DNA from: a virus
Taxonomy: Duplodnaviria; Caudoviricetes
Direction: 5' to 3' (one strand)
Length of the DNA stretch: 64,000 nucleotides
IMG/VR virus record: IMGVR_UViG_3300047160_004532
Location: 3,416-67,415 of that record
Shown here: one piece after another, positions 2,601 through 46,660 of the stretch
Layout of the letters: each line of letters opens with the position of its first letter
How positions within the stretch are numbered: position 1 is the stretch's first letter
Notes under the pieces: generated by a model
What the model was told of the DNA's origin: nothing
The model's input: only the letters and a program-made list of their open reading frames with translations
The model's database searches: none
Made by a program: the position numbers and the translations under genes

Positions 2601-4715
2601 ATGAGTAAGAAGCCCCTTGACGTCCCTCCTCACCTCGATCCTCGCCTCAAAGGCAAGCTCCACGCCTTCCCAATCCCGCCATGGTTGGGCAGCGCCAAAG
2701 CGAAGCTCTACGGCGTCCCTCAGATCACGGACCCGATGTATGTCCAGCGGTTCGAGAAATCGGACAGCACACTCCATTTTGAGAGCAACCCGGGCCCACA
2801 GACACACGCGCTATTTGCCCCATTCGAGGAGCTGGTCGTTGGAGGCCGCCGCGGCGGTGGGAAGTCAGTTTGGCTCCTCGCCAAGCCGTGTATGACGGAC
2901 TTCACGCTGGGGCACGACGACCCAGCCCGAGGATCGTATTTGAACGACAGGGCGTTTCGAGGACTCTTCCTGCGGCAGGAGTACCAGAGCTTGGCGGAAT
3001 TCATTGAAGAGGCGATTGAATTCTACAAGCCATTCGGCGGGAAGGACGTCGGCGATCCGGTTCAGATTGACTTTCCGTCTGGCGCGAGAATCTATTTCAA
3101 CCACCTTCAAGATGAAAAGGCTTACACCAAGTACAAGGGATGGAACCTAACGTTCATCGGCATTGAAGAGTTGACGACGATCCCCAGCCTCCAGCAGTAC
3201 CGAAAGCTGCTCGGATCGCTCCGCGCCACGCCACGGGTTCGGGAGGTTGCCGGACCGAACGGGACCAAGGTACAGAAGACCTTTCCGCCGCTTCGCACCC
3301 AGATGGCGGCAACGACGAATCCCGACGGACCAGGCGCGCCGTGGGTAATGGACCGCTTCGTCTACGTGCCGGACGAAAAAGGTAAAGACATCCCATGGGG
3401 GACTCCGATGTACGACGGGATCACCGGAAGCTGGAGATGCTTCATCCCCTTCCCGATCGAGGGGAATCCCTACCTTGCCGACAGTACGACGGCAGGCCGG
3501 CGCTACATGGGAATGCTGCGGTCCCAGGACGAGGTCACCCAGCGGCAGTGGATTCACGGCGACTGGCGAGCTGGATCGAGCGTGTTTTTCACCGAGTACC
3601 GACCTGACGGGCCAAACCCGGAGGAGATAGTGGACTTTCCGTGGGCGAACCACAGGACAGACCCGGTGCTCCTGCGGCCGTGGTGGTATCGCTTCGGCTC
3701 TGGCGACTGGGCGTACGACCACCCTGCGGCGTTCCATAAGTTCTGCCGCAACGAGCAAGACAAGCGGTTGCACATTTACGACGAGATGCAGGTTCGTCGC
3801 GTGGCGCCGTTCGAGCTGGGCGCACTCCTCGCCAAGTGGTGGTTGCCTGAATTGTCGGGACTCCACAAGCACTCCAAGGACGCCGCAGTGGTCCTCCATA
3901 TCGGATCGGACATGTTCCGTAAGACCTCGGACGAGCGGACCATCGCCGAGCAGATGGCAGCCGGCATTCGGGAAGTTCTGGGCTCTTACGGGGCGGTCTT
4001 GATGAAGATGGACGACGTGGAACGCGAGATCAACGCGCGCGATCCGCGCCGTGCGCGTGACGTCTTCCAGCGCCGCATGAAGGAAGCCGAAGGCAAGATG
4101 CGGCTCGTTCTGAAGCCCTGTTGGCCGGATCGCGTTTCGGCGTGGCAGTTTATTCGGGACATGTTGCGGTGGCGTCCGGCGATGCTACAGTTCCACACGA
4201 ACGAGGAACGGGGGAAGTACCTACGGCAGGTTCTGGCCGAGGAGGGCCGCGAGTCGTACGAGTTGCAGGCGGCAAACCTCCAGAAGGCCAAGCCCGAGAT
4301 CTTGCCGAAACTGCAAATCTGGCGGTGCTGCGCGGAACTTGACCGCTGTCTCCGGACCGCCAGGCGCGTGCCGTCGCCAAATGATCCGTCAAAAGTGGAT
4401 AGGTCGGACGATGTCCTGAAATTTAACGCCGATTCGGAAGGAAAAGGCGGCGACGATAGTTTAGAAAGTTTTAGAAATGGATGCTTCGCCTACAAAGAGA
4501 TACAGACTTCTATGCCGCTGGACGTCTACGTCTCGGAGCGGATCGAGGAAATCCAGGAAGAGTACGAGAAGAACTACGGCGAGCGGCTAACGGACCCGGC
4601 AAGGCTCGCAATGATTGCACAAACCCAGGTTGCCAACTTCGCCAAGCAGCAGGGCCCAAAAGCGGCATCGTTCAGCCTGCCGAGCAAGTGGAATATTCGA
4701 CATCGGCCACAATAG
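2601..4715 (+). CDS. terL: Terminase large subunit
   Basis: NPGPQ adenine motif, Walker A GGRRGGGKS, Walker B FIGIEEL, ATTNPDGPG, nuclease GDWAYDHP and DDSLESFRNG. Confidence 0.95.
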   Translation: MSKKPLDVPPHLDPRLKGKLHAFPIPPWLGSAKAKLYGVPQITDPMYVQRFEKSDSTLHFESNPGPQTHALFAPFEELVVGGRRGGGKSVWLLAKPCMTDFTLGHDDPARGSYLNDRAFRGLFLRQEYQSLAEFIEEAIEFYKPFGGKDVGDPVQIDFPSGARIYFNHLQDEKAYTKYKGWNLTFIGIEELTTIPSLQQYRKLLGSLRATPRVREVAGPNGTKVQKTFPPLRTQMAATTNPDGPGAPWVMDRFVYVPDEKGKDIPWGTPMYDGITGSWRCFIPFPIEGNPYLADSTTAGRRYMGMLRSQDEVTQRQWIHGDWRAGSSVFFTEYRPDGPNPEEIVDFPWANHRTDPVLLRPWWYRFGSGDWAYDHPAAFHKFCRNEQDKRLHIYDEMQVRRVAPFELGALLAKWWLPELSGLHKHSKDAAVVLHIGSDMFRKTSDERTIAEQMAAGIREVLGSYGAVLMKMDDVEREINARDPRRARDVFQRRMKEAEGKMRLVLKPCWPDRVSAWQFIRDMLRWRPAMLQFHTNEERGKYLRQVLAEEGRESYELQAANLQKAKPEILPKLQIWRCCAELDRCLRTARRVPSPNDPSKVDRSDDVLKFNADSEGKGGDDSLESFRNGCFAYKEIQTSMPLDVYVSERIEEIQEEYEKNYGERLTDPARLAMIAQTQVANFAKQQGPKAASFSLPSKWNIRHRPQ

Positions 4716-32459: not shown

Positions 32460-35400
32460 ATGGGATCGACCAACGGGTTCGACGTTGACAAGTTCCTGAA
32501 CTCAATAGGAAACCAATCACAGCCGCAGCAACCGCAAGCCCAGCCAGCAAGCGGGGGATTCGATGTCGACAGGTTCTTGGACTCGATAGGAAACACGTCG
32601 CCTTCCCCGCAGCCACAAGCTTCCGCGCCGGTACCACCGCCCGACCGCTACCCCGGACTTCCCAAGGCCGTGGCGAGTCCCTCCCTCGACGAGATGCCGT
32701 GGTATCAGCGCTACCCAGAGGAGTTGCGTCGACTCCTCATGGGCGAGCCCGGGCAGGACACGGCGATCGCGCACGCCCTCGGACAAGAGCAAGTCAAACC
32801 ACAATTCCAACCGCAACCATATGAGCGCCCCATTATCAGCTTTGAGGGGAGTCCGACACTCACCCGTGCGGCATTGACCTCGGTAGCTCCGACCTACGCT
32901 TGGTCCCCCGATCCCGATCTCGCGCGCGGAGTCGGCAAGGCCATGACCGGCATGACGACCGGACCCAACGTAGGGCTCCTTGTCGGGACAGCAGGACTCT
33001 CGGAACTACCGGTCCTCGGTCAGGCCGCGAATGCCTACTTCACCGAAGAGATGCTGCGGCAGGCCGCGCAGCAGGCCCCGCAGGTCAAGGAAGCGATGGA
33101 TCGCGGCGACTACGCGACGGCTAAGGAGCTGGCAACCGAGATGGGATTCAACCTCGCCATGGGAGGCGCGGGAGCGGTCCACGCGGTCAAAGGCGCGGCG
33201 AGGATCCCAGGTCAAATCCGGGAACTCGCCACGCGCGAGGCGCAAGCGAGAGGAGAATTCCGTCCGACGACTGGGCAACCGGCGCCGCCGCCGGCAGAAC
33301 CGGGTCCGACAACCGGCGTTCCGCCGCCGCAACCCGAGGCCGTCGAGCCGACGAAGACATCCCGCCCGGGTCCGAGGACGCCGGTTCCTCCGACTGCCGC
33401 CGCAGCTACGGTCCCCGAGGCACCCCAAACGCTGGACATCCAGTTCTCGCAACTCAACCAAGGACTACGGAAGGCCGTCATGGTCCCGAAGGAGAATGCC
33501 AGCTATCGGCCACCATCGCTTGAGCCTGGCATCTCCCGAAAAGCTGACCCTTACGGAAACATCTTCTACTACGACACTCAGCAGGGGGTTACGGCAGGCC
33601 AGGTTCTCGCCGCATCGAAGAATAACACTCTCCCCGAGCTTCTCGGCGGTCCGGGAGGCATGGGCGCGCCCGACAAGTCCGTGCTGCCGCCGAACGCGCC
33701 TGTCGTCACGGCCAAGGCAGCAGACGGGACCGAGGTTCAGTCGACGGCGACAACGCCAGAACGGGTAGGCGAAACGGCAACCGCCACGCAACCGCTGGTT
33801 CCAGAAGGGGGAGCGCTCGAAGTCAAGGCGCCGCAGGAAGCCATCCGGGACCGGCTGGCAGCTCCGGGAGAATCTGTGCCGGCCCCGAACATTTCGACGA
33901 TTGAGCCCACTGTACCACCAAAACCGGGTCAAGAGCTATTCCGTGGTGCGTGGGAGGTGCCTCTCAACGAGAAGGGTGTCGCCGAGGCGCAGGACGCCGC
34001 CCAGCGAACCGCCGGCATGTGGGATGAGATACACGCTAGCCCGATGGGGCGAGCGCAGGAAACGGCTGGAATCGTCGCAGGGACGAACCCGCAGGCGGTC
34101 ATCCACCCGCCGAATCCGGCATTAGCGCCGTGGACTCTAGGCGAGCACGAGGGGAATGCCGTCACGCCCGAGCGGATCGCCGACCTGAACGACCACATCG
34201 TAAACCGTCCAGACGAACCGCTGGGCGGTGTGGGCCAACATTCCGGCAGGCCGGGCGAGAGCTTTAACGACTTCTTCCATCCACTCATCCGCCAACTGCT
34301 GGACGAGGTGCGCGGGTATCAAGAGGGGCAACGGATTCTCAACGTCACCCACTACCGGGACATTCGGGCGATCCAGGCCGCGCTCCGCGCCGAGCATGGT
34401 GAACCCTTTGACGCCGATTTCATGACGGCGAAGGGCGACGAGAAGCCGGGGGATCTCTTCTACTTCGATACGCACACCGGGGATCTAGTCCCGGCTACGG
34501 ACGCTTCGAAGCCAGGAATTTACTTCCTTCGCCACGGCGAGACGATGGCAAATGAGGGGGCGGGAAGTCAAGGGGTAAATCGGGGGCAAATCGGTGGTAA
34601 ATCGGGGGGGATTGGTCCTCCATCGCCCGAAACTCTCGGCGCTCCCGCGCCACTCGGTGGGGAGATTCCCGCGAATATTCGCCCGGAGACGGTGCCTGCT
34701 TCGCGACAACTCGCCGCGCCCGCGCCCTTGGGCGAAACGACCGGGACACCCCCGCCGCCGCGACCGGACGCCTTCAGCCAGTTTCTGACGTCCGAGGAGG
34801 GGTCGTTCAACCCGCAATTCGTCAAGGACGCCCTCGCCGAACCGATCGCCCTCAAGACCAAGCGCGATCAGATGATGAACTTCCTGAAGGCGCGCGAAGG
34901 GACGCCCAGCCAGAAGAAAATGGGCCAGCGCGCGATTGAGTACCTCGTCGGCCAGCGAGACTGGTTCCTCACCAAGTCGATGCAAATTCTCGACATGGCA
35001 AAGAAATTCGTTCCGGACGAGAATGAGCGGAAAGCGCTCGCCCTGATGCGCGACTTCCAGAATCGCCCGGGCGAACTGAAGCAATGGCGCGACCTGACCC
35101 ACCCGAACCTGTACCACGTAGGACGCGGACAGGCGGGACCGGCGAACCTAGACGCCGTCAAGCGAATCGAAGCGCTACGGCCCGTCATCGATCTCGCCTT
35201 GAATCCAACGCCAGGGATGCAGCGTGCCAACATTGTCCTCGACAGCTTCTCTAATCTGACCCTCGCTGTCGGCAAGAAGCTCGGCTGGTTGGACTCGCGC
35301 CTGACCCCCGAGGAGTACGTTCCCCACATTCTTGACTCGAGGGAAGACGTCTTGGAGAATCCGTATACCCAGGAACGGGCGACCGGATCGGCCGTCGCCG

Positions 35401-37262
35401 GCAAGATTAGCCGCAGTTTCGCCCACGGGAAGGAACGTAAAGCCTACGATACCCTGCTCGACGCCATCGCGGACGGTGCCAGGCCGAAGACCCTCGACGC
35501 GATTGACGCCTTCAGCGTCTACGCGGATAAGTTCTCAACGAAGCGTGCCACGGAGATGTGGAAGGACACCATGCTCCAGAACGGTTTCGCGAAGTGGGGG
35601 GGTATGGACAGGCCGGTGGAGGGATGGGAAGTCTTCGCGCCGCAGGGCAACCTGTTCAAGATTCCGTACGCACGGCTGAACAAAAAGGGCGAACCAGTGC
35701 CGGGACTTCAGCAACTCTGGGGGCCAAAATTCATGGTCGATGCCATGAAGCCGGTCACGGACCCGAACTACATGCTCAGGATGCCGTGGCTCCAGAAAAC
35801 CTATCTCTGGCAGCAGTACGTCAAGTCGATCAATCTCGCGTGGTCCTTCTTCCACCCGAAGGCACTCGAACTTATGGCGGCGTCGAACATGGGTCCGGAG
35901 GGGACCTACCGTGCCCATATGCTCGATCTCGACTCCAAGGACGCCAAAGATCTCGAGCAGGATGGCGCAATGCACGGGCTCACGACCGCAATTCAGGGTA
36001 AGGTGATCGATGCCTACCGCCGCCTCGCGCCCGGATCAATCCCGCACTGGGGCGAAATCATCACGAGCGCACCGGGCCTGAAGCAAATGAACAAAGTTGC
36101 CGAGGCCACGACGGAACTGACCTTCGGCGTCATGCAGAGGAAGTTCAAGATCTGGGATTACGGCCGCCAGACGGCGAAGTGGATCGCGGATCATCCGAAC
36201 GCCACGCCGCAGGAGCTTTCTGACGCCAAGACCTCGATCGCGCGCCAAGTGAATGCCGTCTACGGAGGCCTGAACTGGGAAACCCTCGGCTGGAGTCGCC
36301 AAGCTCTCACTCTCGCTCGCCTTGGATTGCTCGCGCCGGACTGGACGTTCTCGAACTTCATGAACGTGGGGCAGGCATTCGAGGGCGGCTGGAAGGGTGC
36401 CACGCACCAAGCCGCCAAGGCGGTCGGCATTAATGCCCCGAAGTCATGGGAGTCAAGCCCTGCCGGAAACTCCGCGCGCTTATTCTGGATCCGAACCATG
36501 CTGGGCGGTATCGCAGCGACCCAACTGATGAGTGTTGCCCTCACCGGAAAGCCCTCAAAACGGCCCACGCAGGTCTACCTTGGCACCGACCCGGAGGGGA
36601 AAGAAGTCTATCAGAACTGGTTCTTCGCGGGCGCGCCAGGCGACCTCGTCAACATGATGAGCAAGATGAAGGAAGGCGGCGGGTTCCATGGTCCGGCAAT
36701 GTGGCTCGCCAACAAGCTCACGCCGATCACGAGGGCCGCTCTGCAGCAGTACACCGGCAAAACATACGTCGGCAAAGACATCGCCTCCAAGGATATGGAC
36801 TTCCTGCCGAAGACTGTCCGGCAGGGGGCCTATGCTCTACGCGAAATCTCGCCGATCCCCTTCTCGGCCTCTAGCGCCTACGACATGCTCACCAGCGGCG
36901 GTCCGGAGCGCAAACCCGTCGAGTATATTTCTACCCTCCTTGGCGGGCAGCCAGCCTCTCACGTTGTGCCCGAGGGCATGAAGATGACCTCCAAGGGCTT
37001 GCGTCCCGAGAAGCCAAAGACCAAAATCAGCCAATTCCAGCAAATGTGGAGCGGTCGGGTATACGTCCCTGAAGCAAAGAGCTTGGAGCGAATGGACCTC
37101 ACGAACGCCTTACGCGCATACGATTCGGTTTCAGATGCGGACCGGGAGAAACTCAAGGCCATCATGCGCGGGAAGGTCTACCGTGCGCGCTCCCAGCCGA
37201 GCCAGTGGACCCCGGACGCCAAGAGTCTCGCAATGAAGCATTTCAATGTAGGTCCGTACTGA
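32460..37262 (+). CDS. Large ejection-type protein (1600 aa) with embedded permuted histidine phosphatase domain
   Basis: Duplicated GFDVD.FL.SIGN N-terminus; PLNEKG, SPMGRAQETA, GES, VTH and RHGET motifs at 33930-34556. Confidence 0.75.
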   Translation: MGSTNGFDVDKFLNSIGNQSQPQQPQAQPASGGFDVDRFLDSIGNTSPSPQPQASAPVPPPDRYPGLPKAVASPSLDEMPWYQRYPEELRRLLMGEPGQDTAIAHALGQEQVKPQFQPQPYERPIISFEGSPTLTRAALTSVAPTYAWSPDPDLARGVGKAMTGMTTGPNVGLLVGTAGLSELPVLGQAANAYFTEEMLRQAAQQAPQVKEAMDRGDYATAKELATEMGFNLAMGGAGAVHAVKGAARIPGQIRELATREAQARGEFRPTTGQPAPPPAEPGPTTGVPPPQPEAVEPTKTSRPGPRTPVPPTAAAATVPEAPQTLDIQFSQLNQGLRKAVMVPKENASYRPPSLEPGISRKADPYGNIFYYDTQQGVTAGQVLAASKNNTLPELLGGPGGMGAPDKSVLPPNAPVVTAKAADGTEVQSTATTPERVGETATATQPLVPEGGALEVKAPQEAIRDRLAAPGESVPAPNISTIEPTVPPKPGQELFRGAWEVPLNEKGVAEAQDAAQRTAGMWDEIHASPMGRAQETAGIVAGTNPQAVIHPPNPALAPWTLGEHEGNAVTPERIADLNDHIVNRPDEPLGGVGQHSGRPGESFNDFFHPLIRQLLDEVRGYQEGQRILNVTHYRDIRAIQAALRAEHGEPFDADFMTAKGDEKPGDLFYFDTHTGDLVPATDASKPGIYFLRHGETMANEGAGSQGVNRGQIGGKSGGIGPPSPETLGAPAPLGGEIPANIRPETVPASRQLAAPAPLGETTGTPPPPRPDAFSQFLTSEEGSFNPQFVKDALAEPIALKTKRDQMMNFLKAREGTPSQKKMGQRAIEYLVGQRDWFLTKSMQILDMAKKFVPDENERKALALMRDFQNRPGELKQWRDLTHPNLYHVGRGQAGPANLDAVKRIEALRPVIDLALNPTPGMQRANIVLDSFSNLTLAVGKKLGWLDSRLTPEEYVPHILDSREDVLENPYTQERATGSAVAGKISRSFAHGKERKAYDTLLDAIADGARPKTLDAIDAFSVYADKFSTKRATEMWKDTMLQNGFAKWGGMDRPVEGWEVFAPQGNLFKIPYARLNKKGEPVPGLQQLWGPKFMVDAMKPVTDPNYMLRMPWLQKTYLWQQYVKSINLAWSFFHPKALELMAASNMGPEGTYRAHMLDLDSKDAKDLEQDGAMHGLTTAIQGKVIDAYRRLAPGSIPHWGEIITSAPGLKQMNKVAEATTELTFGVMQRKFKIWDYGRQTAKWIADHPNATPQELSDAKTSIARQVNAVYGGLNWETLGWSRQALTLARLGLLAPDWTFSNFMNVGQAFEGGWKGATHQAAKAVGINAPKSWESSPAGNSARLFWIRTMLGGIAATQLMSVALTGKPSKRPTQVYLGTDPEGKEVYQNWFFAGAPGDLVNMMSKMKEGGGFHGPAMWLANKLTPITRAALQQYTGKTYVGKDIASKDMDFLPKTVRQGAYALREISPIPFSASSAYDMLTSGGPERKPVEYISTLLGGQPASHVVPEGMKMTSKGLRPEKPKTKISQFQQMWSGRVYVPEAKSLERMDLTNALRAYDSVSDADREKLKAIMRGKVYRARSQPSQWTPDAKSLAMKHFNVGPY

Positions 37263-41440: not shown

Positions 41441-42480
41441 AACGCGCCACTCTCATCGTTACGCTGGGCCTTATCTTCATCTACGCGACGATATGGATTG
41501 CCCTTCCGCAGACTCCGGGGATCAACCTCAATCTGTCCGGCGGCGGCGGGGGCGGCGGCGGAAGTCTTGACTTCCAGAGCAACTCCGTGTCCCTTGGGAC
41601 GATCACCGCGCTCAACATCGTGCCGGGCACGGGCGTGACAGCAACGCCGACGAACCCAAGCGGAACAGGCAACCTTCAAATGTCACTGGATACGGCTTAC
41701 GCGCCGAGTAAGGCCAATCTCCAGAGCGCAACGAACCCGCAGATTTGCACTTCGGCATCGATGAGCGGCACCGCGTACACGGCAACTTGCGCATATACCT
41801 TGGGAGCCTACGCTGCAAAGCAGACTTTGTACTGGTATGCGGACGTTACCAACACAAGCACCACGCCAACATTGAACATTGACACGCTGGGCAACAAGAC
41901 CCTCGTGAAACTGGGCGGCGGCGCCCTAGCCAACAACGACATTAAGGCCGCATCGCTCTATCGCATCTGGTACGACGGAACGAACATGGAGGTGGTTGAG
42001 GCGGGACTTGGAGGAGGTTCTTCCGCTCCGTACTCTCTCAGCAAGGGATACACATCAATTTCTTCGGGTGGTAGTCCGGTAGCCGTTTATTCGGTCACTA
42101 TGCCCGCATTATCTACTGGGAACTGTAGGCAGATAAACTTTGAGGTTGGCGGGTCAGTTAGTGGAGCTTCAATCTCGGCTGTTATTGGTGGGACGGTCAC
42201 ATGGGTAGCTGATGCTGCATTCGGTGGATCTGGAACTAATTATGCTGGTTATACATTACAGCTATGCAATGATGCTGGAGTGCAGAATGCCCAGCATACG
42301 ACCGTAATATCTTCATTTTATAATCTAGGAGCTGGGCCTGTCCCATATGGTGGGGCATCAACTACAGCCACTCCCCTAACCTCATCTCTGAATTTTGCCA
42401 CCACGCAGACGCTTGTAATCAATGTGAGCGACTCGGGAACGGCATACGGATACGCACTTTCTATAGCCGACACTCAATAA
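41437..42480 (+). CDS. Tail-fibre-like protein with N-terminal signal/anchor
   Basis: MKRATLIVTLGLIFIYATIWIALP; TNTSTTPTLNIDTLGNK...IWYDGT fibre domain. Confidence 0.75.
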   Translation: MKRATLIVTLGLIFIYATIWIALPQTPGINLNLSGGGGGGGGSLDFQSNSVSLGTITALNIVPGTGVTATPTNPSGTGNLQMSLDTAYAPSKANLQSATNPQICTSASMSGTAYTATCAYTLGAYAAKQTLYWYADVTNTSTTPTLNIDTLGNKTLVKLGGGALANNDIKAASLYRIWYDGTNMEVVEAGLGGGSSAPYSLSKGYTSISSGGSPVAVYSVTMPALSTGNCRQINFEVGGSVSGASISAVIGGTVTWVADAAFGGSGTNYAGYTLQLCNDAGVQNAQHTTVISSFYNLGAGPVPYGGASTTATPLTSSLNFATTQTLVINVSDSGTAYGYALSIADTQ

Positions 42481-42481
42481 G

Positions 42482-45400
42482 ATGAAATCACTCTATATTT
42501 TGTTATCGGCGGCGTCACTATCGTTTGGCGGTCAATCGGTACACCTGGATACCGGATATCCCAGCAATTCATCTATGACGACTGCCTCTCGTCATCGTCT
42601 TGAGTTCTACCTTCACGACTGGACTAACACCGGGATCGAGCATCTTAAGGGCGGGTCTGATGCAACTGGATGGGTGATCTACATTCAAGATGGAATCGTG
42701 ACGATCTACAACCCTTGGGAGACTGGTGCTCATCCTTCCGATCCCATAGCGGTTGACCTGCGATCAATTAGTCCACAGGCGGTATATTTCAGGCTTCAGC
42801 GTCAATACCAAACGAACACTGATTCCTATGAGGCTTGGGATATACACGGGAATAGATTCTTTTTCATAACTGTAACCTACACCGGAGACAGCCCTTCTGG
42901 TACGGGTTTTATATGGGGGGATGGATCGAATGGTGCGCCTATGTGGGCAGGATGGGTGAGGACACACTCAACAATTCTTCCGATCAATTCTAGGCCACCA
43001 ACGACAGTTGACAATCCCAATCGATTGATCGAATGGAAGTTTGACGGCAGTTTGGCTGACTCTGGACCTAACGGCTACACGGCCACATGGAGTAGCGGCA
43101 GCCCTACGTATGAAGCAACGCCGTACCAGAATGTTGTCGCGGTCTTGAGGACTAGTAATGCCAACACTTGGGCAAATACTCTTTCACAGCGTGCTGGATA
43201 TGCCGCGACTCTCGACGGAACCGGAAGCTACAGCCAATCGGACACGTCGAATGCGGTCACATGCTTCTGGCAGGAACTGAGCGGTCCCACACTGGCCCTG
43301 TTCGACAGTCACACGAGTTGCAATCCGAATCTAACCGGGCAAATATTCGGAGACTATCTGCTACAAATGGAAGCTGTAGACGACCGCTCGATCACTGCCC
43401 TCGCAAGCAATCACATCGGTTGGGTGGCTACGGACGACAACTCGGTTGTCGTTCAGCCAACAAGTGTCGCAAACGCGGATGCCCTTTATGGTCCCATGCC
43501 TGCTTGGGGCACAAGCCCCTGGGGCTACTACGATTACTTTCACAACAGGGGCATGACACTCCGAACAATTGACTATGCTCTGCCAATCAATCCATTTTTC
43601 GGCTTCCCGGTTCCGATGACTTATCCAGGATGGTCATCTCTGCAGTGGGAACAATATGGCAGCGGAACAGTAAGCTGGTTTTGGAACGGGATCGGCACTG
43701 GACTTGGCAATCAGAGTGTTACCCCAAAGGGAACTACCCTAGCCGGAAATCTTGGGAATAATCCTGTAACTGATCTGACGATATCCGTTGTTGATGCGAC
43801 ACAGTTGGATCTTTCCGAATTCCCCACTAGAATTCTTCTGTACACTGGGAGTGGTGATCCCGAGGAGGTCAGAATTTGCAGTAGCTCAGGAAATACACTG
43901 AATGTCTGCTATGACGGACGAGGACCTAACATTCAGTCTTGGACAAGTGGGCAGATAGTTGCTCAGGATAAGGTAACTGGCACGGGTACACACTTCGTTA
44001 CCGATTCTAATTCTGCAATATGTCCAGTTGGAGTACCGTCTCCCCCAGGTCCATCCTTTTTTTCCACTGGCACAATTACACTGACTCATTCCTCAACAAC
44101 AGCTACCCTATCGAGTGACGCCCACTGGTACGGTTTTACTTCAGCGCAATTCAACCCAGCAGGGAAGAATGACTTCTACCTGCGGGCTGCAGCTACACAT
44201 GGAGGAACCCCGTTCTATTTCATTACTAGGATGAACACAGGGGGAGCTGAGGCAGAGGCCTCTAATATAATTGGGGGAGTAATCCAGCCCGGAGGAGTTG
44301 TACCTATTGCCGGGGATACTTATGGTCAGAATTACTATGCAGGCTTCGTTGATGTTGTGGTTACCGACCCAACCGGCTCAGGAGCCGATATCACAGCTAA
44401 CGTTACGTCGGGAAACATTGTTACTTATACCGTGAATAACGGTGGAAGCAATTACACGAGTCCGACAGTCTGGATTTATCCACGTAAAGTACTTCTTTCG
44501 CGTCCATTTCCATCGGACGCAGATGATGGAAGCTATTCCTACACACTACTACCAGGAACCAGGACAGTTACCCTGTTCAGTCCAACCTATCCAGATACTA
44601 CGGGTAAAGGATTGGCGATGTGGGGAACCTCGGGCTGTGAATCGGAAACATCCCTGTATCTGAATCCTCTGTCACCAGCACAGATTAATAGTCTGAATAA
44701 TGCCTTTGGTTATGATTCCCCACACAATGGGCAACTTATCAGTGGATTGCAGTATTCCGTAACAGACACATCTGGATGGATTAACAACGGGGGACTTGGA
44801 GGTGAATTCTTTTATGGAGAGAATATGGCCTCGGAAGTCCTGTACCTCCGATCGGGATTGGATGCTGCCAAAAGTGCGTCATCGATTGTGTCCGACCACA
44901 TATTGCAGTCTCCATGGATGTACATAGTATCAAGCAACTTGCTTTCACTCGGTGGTCCTGCGATCGGGGCGGTCAATCGTCTGATAACGCAGAATAACCC
45001 ATCTGATCCGAGATGGCCGCTTGCTCGGCAGATGTTCAACCGTGGCGCTCAGGAAATCGAGTATATGACAACGTACGGATGCAACTCTGACGACACTCGT
45101 GACTTGGGATATGGTCAGGCGCTTTTGGTTCTTGGGATGCTATACGATCCTGATCCGACATGGAAGGCACATTGGCAGACTTACCTGACAGATATGGAGG
45201 CTATTGATACATCCTGCCATGGTTCTGACAACTCTTGGTCTAATGGGGGAATTTGGAACTCTGTCGGAGGTTGCGGTGCGGGAGGTACAAACCCTTGCGC
45301 CCCTCTGACAATGACGGATGGGTCTGCCGTAGTTACACCATATGGGAGTCTCACGTCAATCGCATCCGGCATGTGTATGGGAACGGCATACGGCAGCGGA

Positions 45401-46660
45401 ACAGTAACTAATGGATCAGCGTCTTTCTCGATCACTAGCACTACTGCAGGAACATTGGGGGCTGCAAACGACTTTGTTCTTAATGGCACGCAATCAGGTG
45501 GATCACAACCCCTTACTCTTGCCCTCCAGTTCAACGGGAGCGGCCCGTATAATCTTGCCGCATACTGGCCTGGAGATTCCGGCACGGTCACCTGGATGTC
45601 CTATACAGGTGGTCAGGCTAACGGGTGGAATCAAATGGCCTTTGCTCACTGTGCTGGGTATCCAGGTCTATGCGGAGGATCGGGACAGGGAAATAATGAT
45701 AAGGTCAACTTATCTCGGAACTACATGTGCTACCAACAAGATGCAACCCACATCATATTGGATCGGCCATGGAAGGAACCCGGCTGCACAGGTGGGATAG
45801 TTTGCGGTAATGATTACGCGAGTTACGGGGCGGGGAACGTGGTGGGATTTGGGCAGTTGCCATACATGTTGGGGATTAAGAGTTATGCAATGGGATTGCT
45901 AGCTCGATCAAGCCTGTCTCCATACAACTCTGACTACCAAACATTTTTAGATGGGGCCACTCAGTGGATCCACGATAACGGGATAAACGCAAACGATCAA
46001 ACGGTGCCATATGGACAGACATACCAATTCTGCGCCACGAGTTGGCTGGTGCTGCCGAACCTTTCGACGCTATTTGACTACAAAACGGACGGCTGTACGG
46101 CTGGGGCCAGCCATTTTGGAGTGGGAGGAAACCGAGAACAAATCGGAGAGTTGAGTAACGCTATTTCAGATTTTTACTTATCTAACCAAAGCCCAACTAA
46201 CAAGACATGGGCTGACACTGTGACTGGGGCACTCTGGGGAAATCCTCTCTTTAATACCGGGGGAGTCTATTATGACTCTAATTCGAGTGCGGCCGACCCC
46301 GCAGCGTTCAACATGAATGATGGGGCTATAAACGAGGGGAAATGGTATGGGTTCTTCACCGGGATGAGTTTCGCCCACCGCTGGATCGCCCAGCGGCTCG
46401 AGAATCCGGCTCCTGCGGCCCCGGCAACGCGAACGATCAAGGTTCCGTTTACCTGTTCGGGAATCACCGGCTGCGCAAAGGCCAAGATGACGGTCACCCA
46501 ACCGACCGGAGATTCTGCCTCGTACACCTGCACCAGTTCGCCGTGTTCGCTCACCAGCCTGGCGGGCATCGGGTCCGCCTTGTTACAGATCCAATACCTC
46601 ACGTCAGGGAACGCCGTTCTGACGACCGGCGATCCGCTTCCGCTATATGTCGGCAGGTGA
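42482..46660 (+). CDS. Large signal-peptide adhesin/receptor-binding-like protein (LamG-like and PKD-like domains)
   Basis: MKSLYILLSAASLSFG; WKFDGSLADSGPNG; LDGTGSYS...FWQELSGP; many Cys pairs. Confidence 0.75.
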   Translation: MKSLYILLSAASLSFGGQSVHLDTGYPSNSSMTTASRHRLEFYLHDWTNTGIEHLKGGSDATGWVIYIQDGIVTIYNPWETGAHPSDPIAVDLRSISPQAVYFRLQRQYQTNTDSYEAWDIHGNRFFFITVTYTGDSPSGTGFIWGDGSNGAPMWAGWVRTHSTILPINSRPPTTVDNPNRLIEWKFDGSLADSGPNGYTATWSSGSPTYEATPYQNVVAVLRTSNANTWANTLSQRAGYAATLDGTGSYSQSDTSNAVTCFWQELSGPTLALFDSHTSCNPNLTGQIFGDYLLQMEAVDDRSITALASNHIGWVATDDNSVVVQPTSVANADALYGPMPAWGTSPWGYYDYFHNRGMTLRTIDYALPINPFFGFPVPMTYPGWSSLQWEQYGSGTVSWFWNGIGTGLGNQSVTPKGTTLAGNLGNNPVTDLTISVVDATQLDLSEFPTRILLYTGSGDPEEVRICSSSGNTLNVCYDGRGPNIQSWTSGQIVAQDKVTGTGTHFVTDSNSAICPVGVPSPPGPSFFSTGTITLTHSSTTATLSSDAHWYGFTSAQFNPAGKNDFYLRAAATHGGTPFYFITRMNTGGAEAEASNIIGGVIQPGGVVPIAGDTYGQNYYAGFVDVVVTDPTGSGADITANVTSGNIVTYTVNNGGSNYTSPTVWIYPRKVLLSRPFPSDADDGSYSYTLLPGTRTVTLFSPTYPDTTGKGLAMWGTSGCESETSLYLNPLSPAQINSLNNAFGYDSPHNGQLISGLQYSVTDTSGWINNGGLGGEFFYGENMASEVLYLRSGLDAAKSASSIVSDHILQSPWMYIVSSNLLSLGGPAIGAVNRLITQNNPSDPRWPLARQMFNRGAQEIEYMTTYGCNSDDTRDLGYGQALLVLGMLYDPDPTWKAHWQTYLTDMEAIDTSCHGSDNSWSNGGIWNSVGGCGAGGTNPCAPLTMTDGSAVVTPYGSLTSIASGMCMGTAYGSGTVTNGSASFSITSTTAGTLGAANDFVLNGTQSGGSQPLTLALQFNGSGPYNLAAYWPGDSGTVTWMSYTGGQANGWNQMAFAHCAGYPGLCGGSGQGNNDKVNLSRNYMCYQQDATHIILDRPWKEPGCTGGIVCGNDYASYGAGNVVGFGQLPYMLGIKSYAMGLLARSSLSPYNSDYQTFLDGATQWIHDNGINANDQTVPYGQTYQFCATSWLVLPNLSTLFDYKTDGCTAGASHFGVGGNREQIGELSNAISDFYLSNQSPTNKTWADTVTGALWGNPLFNTGGVYYDSNSSAADPAAFNMNDGAINEGKWYGFFTGMSFAHRWIAQRLENPAPAAPATRTIKVPFTCSGITGCAKAKMTVTQPTGDSASYTCTSSPCSLTSLAGIGSALLQIQYLTSGNAVLTTGDPLPLYVGR

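Follow-up and report, generated by a model that had tools for sequence, protein, structure and literature searches.

The fold shared by phosphoglycerate mutases and histidine phosphatases is a textbook enzyme fold, in which the strand that carries the RHG motif normally comes first in the chain. Enzymes also occur within large phage proteins; T7 gp16, for example, bears a lytic transglycosylase. Here we describe a window of 64,000 nucleotides from a tailed phage (Duplodnaviria; Caudoviricetes; IMG/VR virus record IMGVR_UViG_3300047160_004532, positions 3,416 to 67,415 of that record), which encodes, within a protein of 1600 residues, a histidine phosphatase domain whose RHG strand comes last (33930-34556, plus strand). 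Large phage proteins in which unrelated enzymatic domains are joined, and whose genes lie among the late ones, have been described as polyvalent proteins (Iyer, Burroughs, Anand, de Souza and Aravind 2017, J Bacteriol; PMC5512222); the 2H, DdrB-ParB and LPD38 domains were named there as phage-type-specific, and injection together with the DNA was proposed. The main text of that paper has no word beginning with "phosphatase", "PGM" or "permut", and the literature we searched yielded nothing about permutation in histidine phosphatases or phosphoglycerate mutases, or about domains of this kind among the virion proteins of phages. We thus found no earlier report of the histidine phosphatase fold as a natural circular permutant; the domain is a variant of a known fold in a known type of phage protein.

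The initial annotation of the window had listed a series of phosphatase motifs in an unusual order. These motifs are read in frame 1 of 33930-34556, in that order and within a single open reading frame (ORF). The only Pfam domain in the encoded protein is His_Phos_1 (PF00300), which passes the gathering cut-off with 59.1 bits (cut-off 21.7); residues 492-643 are aligned with positions 15-159 of the 194 in the profile. Positions 1-14, comprising the first strand and RHGET, have no partner N-terminal of the match, where the protein has a proline-rich linker. Since the match begins only at position 15, the first strand and RHG of the profile are absent on the N-terminal side, and a profile that is aligned from left to right misses the RHG, as had been anticipated. 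The motif is found beyond the final hairpin of the phosphatase fold, where residues 687-699 read IYFLRHGETMANE; GIYFLRHGETMANE at residues 686-699 covers the first strand, in its new place, together with the catalytic loop and is followed by low-complexity Gly/Pro sequence. The canonical chain order, with the RHG strand first, is therefore not that of the window domain.

Comparison of a 66-member family profile with all PDB sequences gave PhoE (YhfR) of Geobacillus stearothermophilus (1H2E, 1EBB) as the best match, aligned in two swapped pieces (1H2E, E 7e-26). Profile positions 213-228 (iYlvRHgeTawN) match PhoE residues 4-19, and positions 9-162 match residues 17-163; these pieces adjoin each other in PhoE and stand in exchanged order in the family profile. 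Three relatives with canonical order (P0141, P0142 and P0148) have an N-terminal RHG and lack the C-terminal motif. Their Pfam alignments start at profile position 1-3, whereas those of permuted members start at 9-17. We built a hidden Markov model (HMM) from these three relatives and moved residues 683-702 of the window protein ahead of residues 489-682. The reordered domain gave one collinear match that includes the RHG, with 107.5 bits, whereas the domain in its native order gave 94.3 bits and a detached 0.7-bit fragment. The Pfam start at position 15, the out-of-order match to PhoE and the controls starting at 1-3 show that this is a permuted variant and not a standard member of PF00300. 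The claim that the domain is circularly permuted thus holds on four counts, the reordering result included; the proposed opening point, in the loop after RHGExxN, agrees with the swapped PhoE pieces and with the reordered match, and the family match expected upon reordering in silico was obtained with our local model of the canonical-order relatives. Our favoured explanation, to which we assign a probability of about 85%, is that residues ~488-700 constitute a true circular permutant within branch 1 of the histidine phosphatases, nearest to the small phosphatases PhoE, PspA and CobC. For none of the NCBIfam equivalogs for phosphoglycerate mutase, CobC, PspA and SixA was the cut-off reached (the best, TIGR03162 cobC, scored 48.1 against a cut-off of 162.9 bits, and the others fell far short of theirs), so that no known specificity can be transferred to the domain.

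The reading frame and the parts of the domain, all on the plus strand, are:

32460..37262, plus strand: ORF of 1600 residues, a polyvalent-type phage protein bearing the phosphatase domain (ORF listing, homologues)
33927..34502, plus strand: histidine phosphatase core, residues 490-681, equivalent to canonical residues ~17-200, with strands 2-6 and helices (Pfam, AlphaFold2 model, VIA overlay)
34050..34052, plus strand: R531, second phosphate-binding arginine, in SPMGRAQET (conserved 100%)
34149..34151, plus strand: E564, predicted general acid, in LGEHEG (PhoE alignment; conserved 93%)
34350..34352, plus strand: H631, second active-site histidine, in NVTHY (conserved 77%)
34503..34514, plus strand: linker DASK, residues 682-685, between the final strand of the canonical order and the relocated strand 1 (DSSP of the model)
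34515..34556, plus strand: relocated first strand and catalytic loop, residues 686-699 (out-of-order match to PhoE 4-19, conservation)
34530..34535, plus strand: R691 and H692, arginine and predicted nucleophilic histidine of the RHG (PhoE alignment, conservation)

The permutation is not peculiar to this phage. A full HMMER search across 1.84 billion cluster representatives gave 599 relatives at E <= 0.001, of which 165 reach E <= 1e-10, and motif order was determined in 151 cluster representatives. A C-terminal xH(G)xT motif is present in 138 of the 151, and in 121 of those the RH precedes a Gly or a close substitute; three, all among the 150 best relatives, are of canonical order, none has both motifs, and the remainder are fragments or bear inserts. 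No representative contains tandem copies of the domain. The 62 standalone proteins of up to 300 residues have a median of 13 residues before the RG motif, which are too few for the first strand and RHGETxxN, and a median of 14 after the His. A Met start is found in 62 of the 65 short proteins. Permutation is thus a trait of a family of more than 100 sequence clusters, which range from standalone proteins of 210-260 residues to giant multidomain phage proteins. The initial annotation had not foreseen so large a family, with its standalone forms and rare relatives of canonical order. A single-sequence search of viral and genome contigs for related loci gave no match. Four viral contigs (L004, L005, L007 and L008) encode short forms of 249-396 residues and one form of 776 residues, located within or at the end of runs of large, co-directional and tightly abutting ORFs, an arrangement that suits virion gene arrays.

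We considered repeated changes of order, as a FastTree phylogeny nested the canonical-order relatives among the permuted ones, but IQ-TREE with a site-mixture model overturned this nesting and we rejected the idea. The latter tree places all three canonical-order relatives on one side of a branch (Shimodaira-Hasegawa approximate likelihood ratio test support 81), for which a single change suffices; as the tree is unrooted, the change could have gone in either direction. By the IQ-TREE phylogeny, an ancestor of canonical order and a single rearrangement suffice to explain the permuted members.

Conservation across the 138 aligned permuted domains centers on the catalytic residues. The window copy retains all five of these (R691, H692, R531, E564 and H631) as well as the ETxxN asparagine, N698, and therefore the RHG, SxxxRA and second His that the initial annotation had considered retained. 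The predicted nucleophile H692 is conserved in 99% of the domains, as are T695 and G686, followed by R531 (100%), E564 (93%), R691 (84%), N698 (82%) and H631 (77%). Because the C-terminal motif is also kept in the five closest homologues and in 138 of the 151 representatives, its occurrence is not due to chance. A conserved loop specific to this family, RPDExxPGxGxxSxxPGESF (residues ~582-602), is located in the region from which other members build the substrate cap, and its conservation suggests one shared, specific substrate.

Whether these residues still serve catalysis can be asked, since a non-catalytic phosphate-binding or purely structural module of a virion protein might retain the same fold. 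The incomplete conservation of the second His speaks for such a pseudoenzyme, as does one subfamily in which LILHSLTDDD takes the place of RHGxT, but the overall pattern of conservation in the family is that of active enzymes and the window copy has the complete catalytic set including the asparagine, and we therefore regard this explanation as quite improbable. In the subfamily itself (P0121, P0129, P0138, P0143, P0153 and P0155), the replacing sequence LILHSLTDDD(T)D keeps the His, lacks the Arg and Gly, and has an acidic tail; it is possibly a form with altered chemistry or an inactive one. P0143 and P0155 have a 2H domain downstream.

An AlphaFold2 (AF2) model computed with the family alignment (mean predicted local distance difference test score, pLDDT, 91.7; predicted template modelling score 0.85) has the alpha/beta/alpha architecture of the fold, with a six-stranded mixed sheet. 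Its best fold matches are PhoE, the phosphoserine phosphatase PspA/iPSP1 (4IJ5) and CobC (6NRU, 6E4B), with Z-scores of 17.5-17.8 and ~2.6 A over ~173 residues. VIA-align superimposes model residues 11-202 on PhoE residues 17-200 (Z 17.7, 2.6 A over 173 residues) and gives a similar overlay with PspA (Z 17.8); both overlays match the whole canonical fold except strand 1. By DSSP, the last two strands of the model are residues 196-200 and 207-212, the latter ending at the RHG arginine (R212 of the model), with block pLDDT values of 94-98 across both and of ~98 for the relocated strand. This confidence, together with the canonical geometry of the rest of the sheet, points to the relocated strand filling the vacant central slot, which would place His692 in a pocket beside R531, E564 and H631 and lends indirect support to the expected location of the RHG in the predicted active site. 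The domain resembles PhoE, PspA and CobC in its set of Arg-His, Arg, Glu and His and in its compact size, without the insertions of dPGM. Unlike PhoE, it has a C-terminal RHGETxxN strand and the RPDExxPGxGxxSxxPGESF loop, and is embedded in a phage protein of 1600 residues.

The short connection to the relocated strand, ~6 residues, raises the question whether the strand might instead enter the empty slot of a neighbouring subunit, so that the active site would form only in an oligomer such as an ejection complex. The ejectosome proteins of T7, gp14 to gp16, are oligomeric, and some relatives have long inserts between the core and the RHG strand (~226 residues in the locus L012, 3-3773, plus strand, and 48 residues in P0123). 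Yet AF2 closes the domain in cis as a monomer with high confidence, and standalone members of 210 residues have no other part that could oligomerize, so that we give strand exchange as small a chance as a pseudoenzyme. The inserts further show that insertions are tolerated at the new linker. For P0079, the RHG strand has a weak candidate ~240 residues downstream of the core. Least probable, and in our view scarcely credible, is a remnant of tandem duplication, in which the first copy is dead without its RHG strand, while the C-terminal RHGET is all that remains of a second, decayed copy and plays no part in the structure: permutation usually arises through duplication followed by losses from either end, so intermediates are to be expected, and low-complexity Gly/Pro sequence follows the motif in the window, but the His and the Thr of the motif are each kept in 99% of 138 diverged domains, the standalone proteins end soon after the His (median 14 residues), AF2 packs the strand at pLDDT ~98, and no member was seen with two copies or both motifs.

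The chain of the window domain opens at the loop after RHGETxxN, passes through strands 2-6 and the helices in the normal way and, past a short linker, closes with the strand of Arg691 and His692. By homology with PhoE and dPGM, His692 would take up the phosphate as a phospho-histidine intermediate, held by the two arginines and His631, while Glu564 would act as the acid that protonates the leaving group. By the same analogy, we infer an active phosphomonoesterase.

C-terminal of the phosphatase, the protein continues with a second module:

34797..37259, plus strand: C-terminal carrier module of 821 residues, mostly helical (homologues, AF2, BFVD)

This module has 32 homologues of 451-1437 residues, some of which bear ddrB-ParB, GGDEF, zeta toxin or GNAT domains in front of it instead of the phosphatase. 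In P0170, P0171 and P0193 it stands behind ddrB-ParB, GGDEF and zeta toxin, which looks like a series of swapped cargo. The AF2 model of the module (pLDDT 78.7) has 100 matches in BFVD at E <= 0.001, the best of which (E ~2e-15) are to proteins named for a "large polyvalent protein associated domain"; further matches bear ART-PolyVal, zeta toxin, RelA/SpoT or LT_GEWL. Escherichia phage PTXU04 and Ralstonia phage Alix are represented in BFVD by such fold relatives of the module. Its language-model neighbours are LPD38 clusters. The similarity of the predicted carrier to the modules of phage large polyvalent proteins is clear. We considered membership of LPD38 itself and rejected it, as it fails by sequence; the likeness to LPD-named phage proteins is one of fold and language-model features. 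A search of the record for LPD38 gave no match and was equally silent in control genomes.

The phosphatase domains, too, occur in changing company. Close homologues of the window protein have a 2H/Acb1-like phosphoesterase directly after the phosphatase (P0005) or a ddrB-ParB domain (P0006 and P0009), and remoter members carry SNF2, Eco57I-type methylase, FtsK-gamma and LAGLIDADG domains. The protein P0086, with 4748 residues, combines FtsK-gamma, the permuted phosphatase, an Eco57I-type methylase, LAGLIDADG (possibly an intein) and a helicase C-terminal domain. Several unrelated domains, with cargo exchanged among relatives, are what defines a polyvalent protein, and the domain list of Iyer et al. 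(PMC5512222) includes partners found here in relatives, namely 2H, ddrB-ParB, SNF2, N6A methylase, GGDEF and ART-PolyVal. The 1600-residue protein thus appears to be a polyvalent protein of the phage type, in which the N-terminal enzyme can be exchanged in front of a carrier module of 820 residues; packaging in the virion and release along with the DNA are probable.

The protein had also been called an ejection protein. Foldseek found nothing significant for the carrier in PDB (E 0.14). With VIA, the top PDB chains were the T7 core protein 9JYY chain I (Z 7.3), whose 1223 residues we take to be gp16, and the PhiM1 ejectosome 8VB2 chain A (Z 6.4), the next match having a Z-score of 4.3; an independent fold search of 48,161 chains also had 8VB2 chain A on top (Z 6.0, 190 residues aligned). 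Like the T7 gp16-type core and ejectosome proteins, the carrier protein is large and mostly helical, with an enzyme on the N-terminal side. The alignments to gp16 and the PhiM1 ejectosome cover ~190 of the 821 residues and show no sequence similarity. Judged by these weak fold matches, suggestive at most, the label is plausible.

As to the substrate, the commonest recognizable partner of the phosphatase is a 2H phosphoesterase with both HxT/S motifs, which always lies directly downstream. The pairing is found in eight representatives, including the two-domain protein P0140 with 404 residues, and in the viral locus L009. 2H enzymes make or resolve 2',3'-cyclic phosphates, yielding 2' or 3' phosphomonoesters. 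Because relatives so often bear an intact 2H domain at this place, our guess is that, at an early stage of infection, the phosphatase might act on nucleotides or RNA ends and take off their 2' or 3' phosphates, by which RNA damage would be repaired or nucleotide signals erased; this assignment is the weakest step of our proposal. Phospho-proteins and small metabolites are possible targets as well; SixA, PGAM5 and Sts-1 are members of the histidine phosphatase superfamily. More specifically, the two enzymes could form a virion-delivered counter-defence pair, in which the cyclic or 2',3'-cyclic phosphate ends on immune nucleotide signals or nuclease-cut tRNA would be opened by 2H, leaving a 2' or 3' phosphate for the phosphatase to strip, a two-step eraser or healer at work before phage gene expression. 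The permutation, in this view, may release the termini of the domain for in-line insertion in a protein that is threaded through the tail. We advance this tentatively and consider it rather unlikely.

Several observations weigh against parts of this interpretation. Within the domain, H631 is kept in just 77% of the family, and the ~6 residues that lead from the last strand of the hairpin to the relocated one are a tight fit if both run parallel and flank strand 5. A 2H domain was not found in the window protein or in its record, which is a 67.4-kb contig estimated to be 74% complete, so that the phosphatase must also work alone. Pfam LPD38 matched neither the window protein nor any other of the 33 carrier sequences (the window protein and its 32 homologues), and the ejectosome Z-scores fall in the range that chance helical arrangements reach. 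Finally, no cultured phage with the domain was found: tblastn searches of 50,697 phage records with the whole protein and with the standalone P0053 were empty, and P0047 gave partial matches alone (64-76% coverage, ~30% identity).

Concerning the surroundings of the gene, the ATG of the 1600-residue ORF lies 4 nt 3' of the stop codon of the upstream ORF, and the public gene call starts 78 codons downstream and has 1522 residues. The ORFs directly flanking the gene had no match in family searches; elsewhere the record encodes a large terminase (TerL) and a helicase, and its matches to tail-fibre and structural proteins are weak. At its N-terminal end, the ORF contains two copies of a 13-residue motif, GFDVD(K/R)FL(N/D)SIGN (window positions 32475-32513 and 32556-32594), each followed by a stretch rich in Gln/Pro. 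The publicly called start, Met79, lies downstream of both copies, so that these may go untranslated. Further along, positions 42001-46000 have a G+C content of 0.50, compared to ~0.60 elsewhere, and span most of ORF 42482-46660 (1392 residues), which has no match in Pfam or PHROG and is perhaps a recent acquisition that encodes a fibre or receptor-binding protein.

For annotation, these results mean that permuted proteins are labelled "PhoE" by current pipelines with the nucleophile seemingly missing, because the database profiles align from position ~15, and that such domains may wrongly be called inactive. The permuted and canonical forms (138 and 3 of the 151 representatives) constitute a natural experiment on how moving a central catalytic strand affects folding. 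A predicted phosphomonoesterase joins the enzymes that phages fuse to virion carrier modules, and further injected enzymes could be sought in the cargo-swapping series of this module. The repeated association with 2H is a lead to a possible new, early-acting counter-defence or RNA-repair activity.

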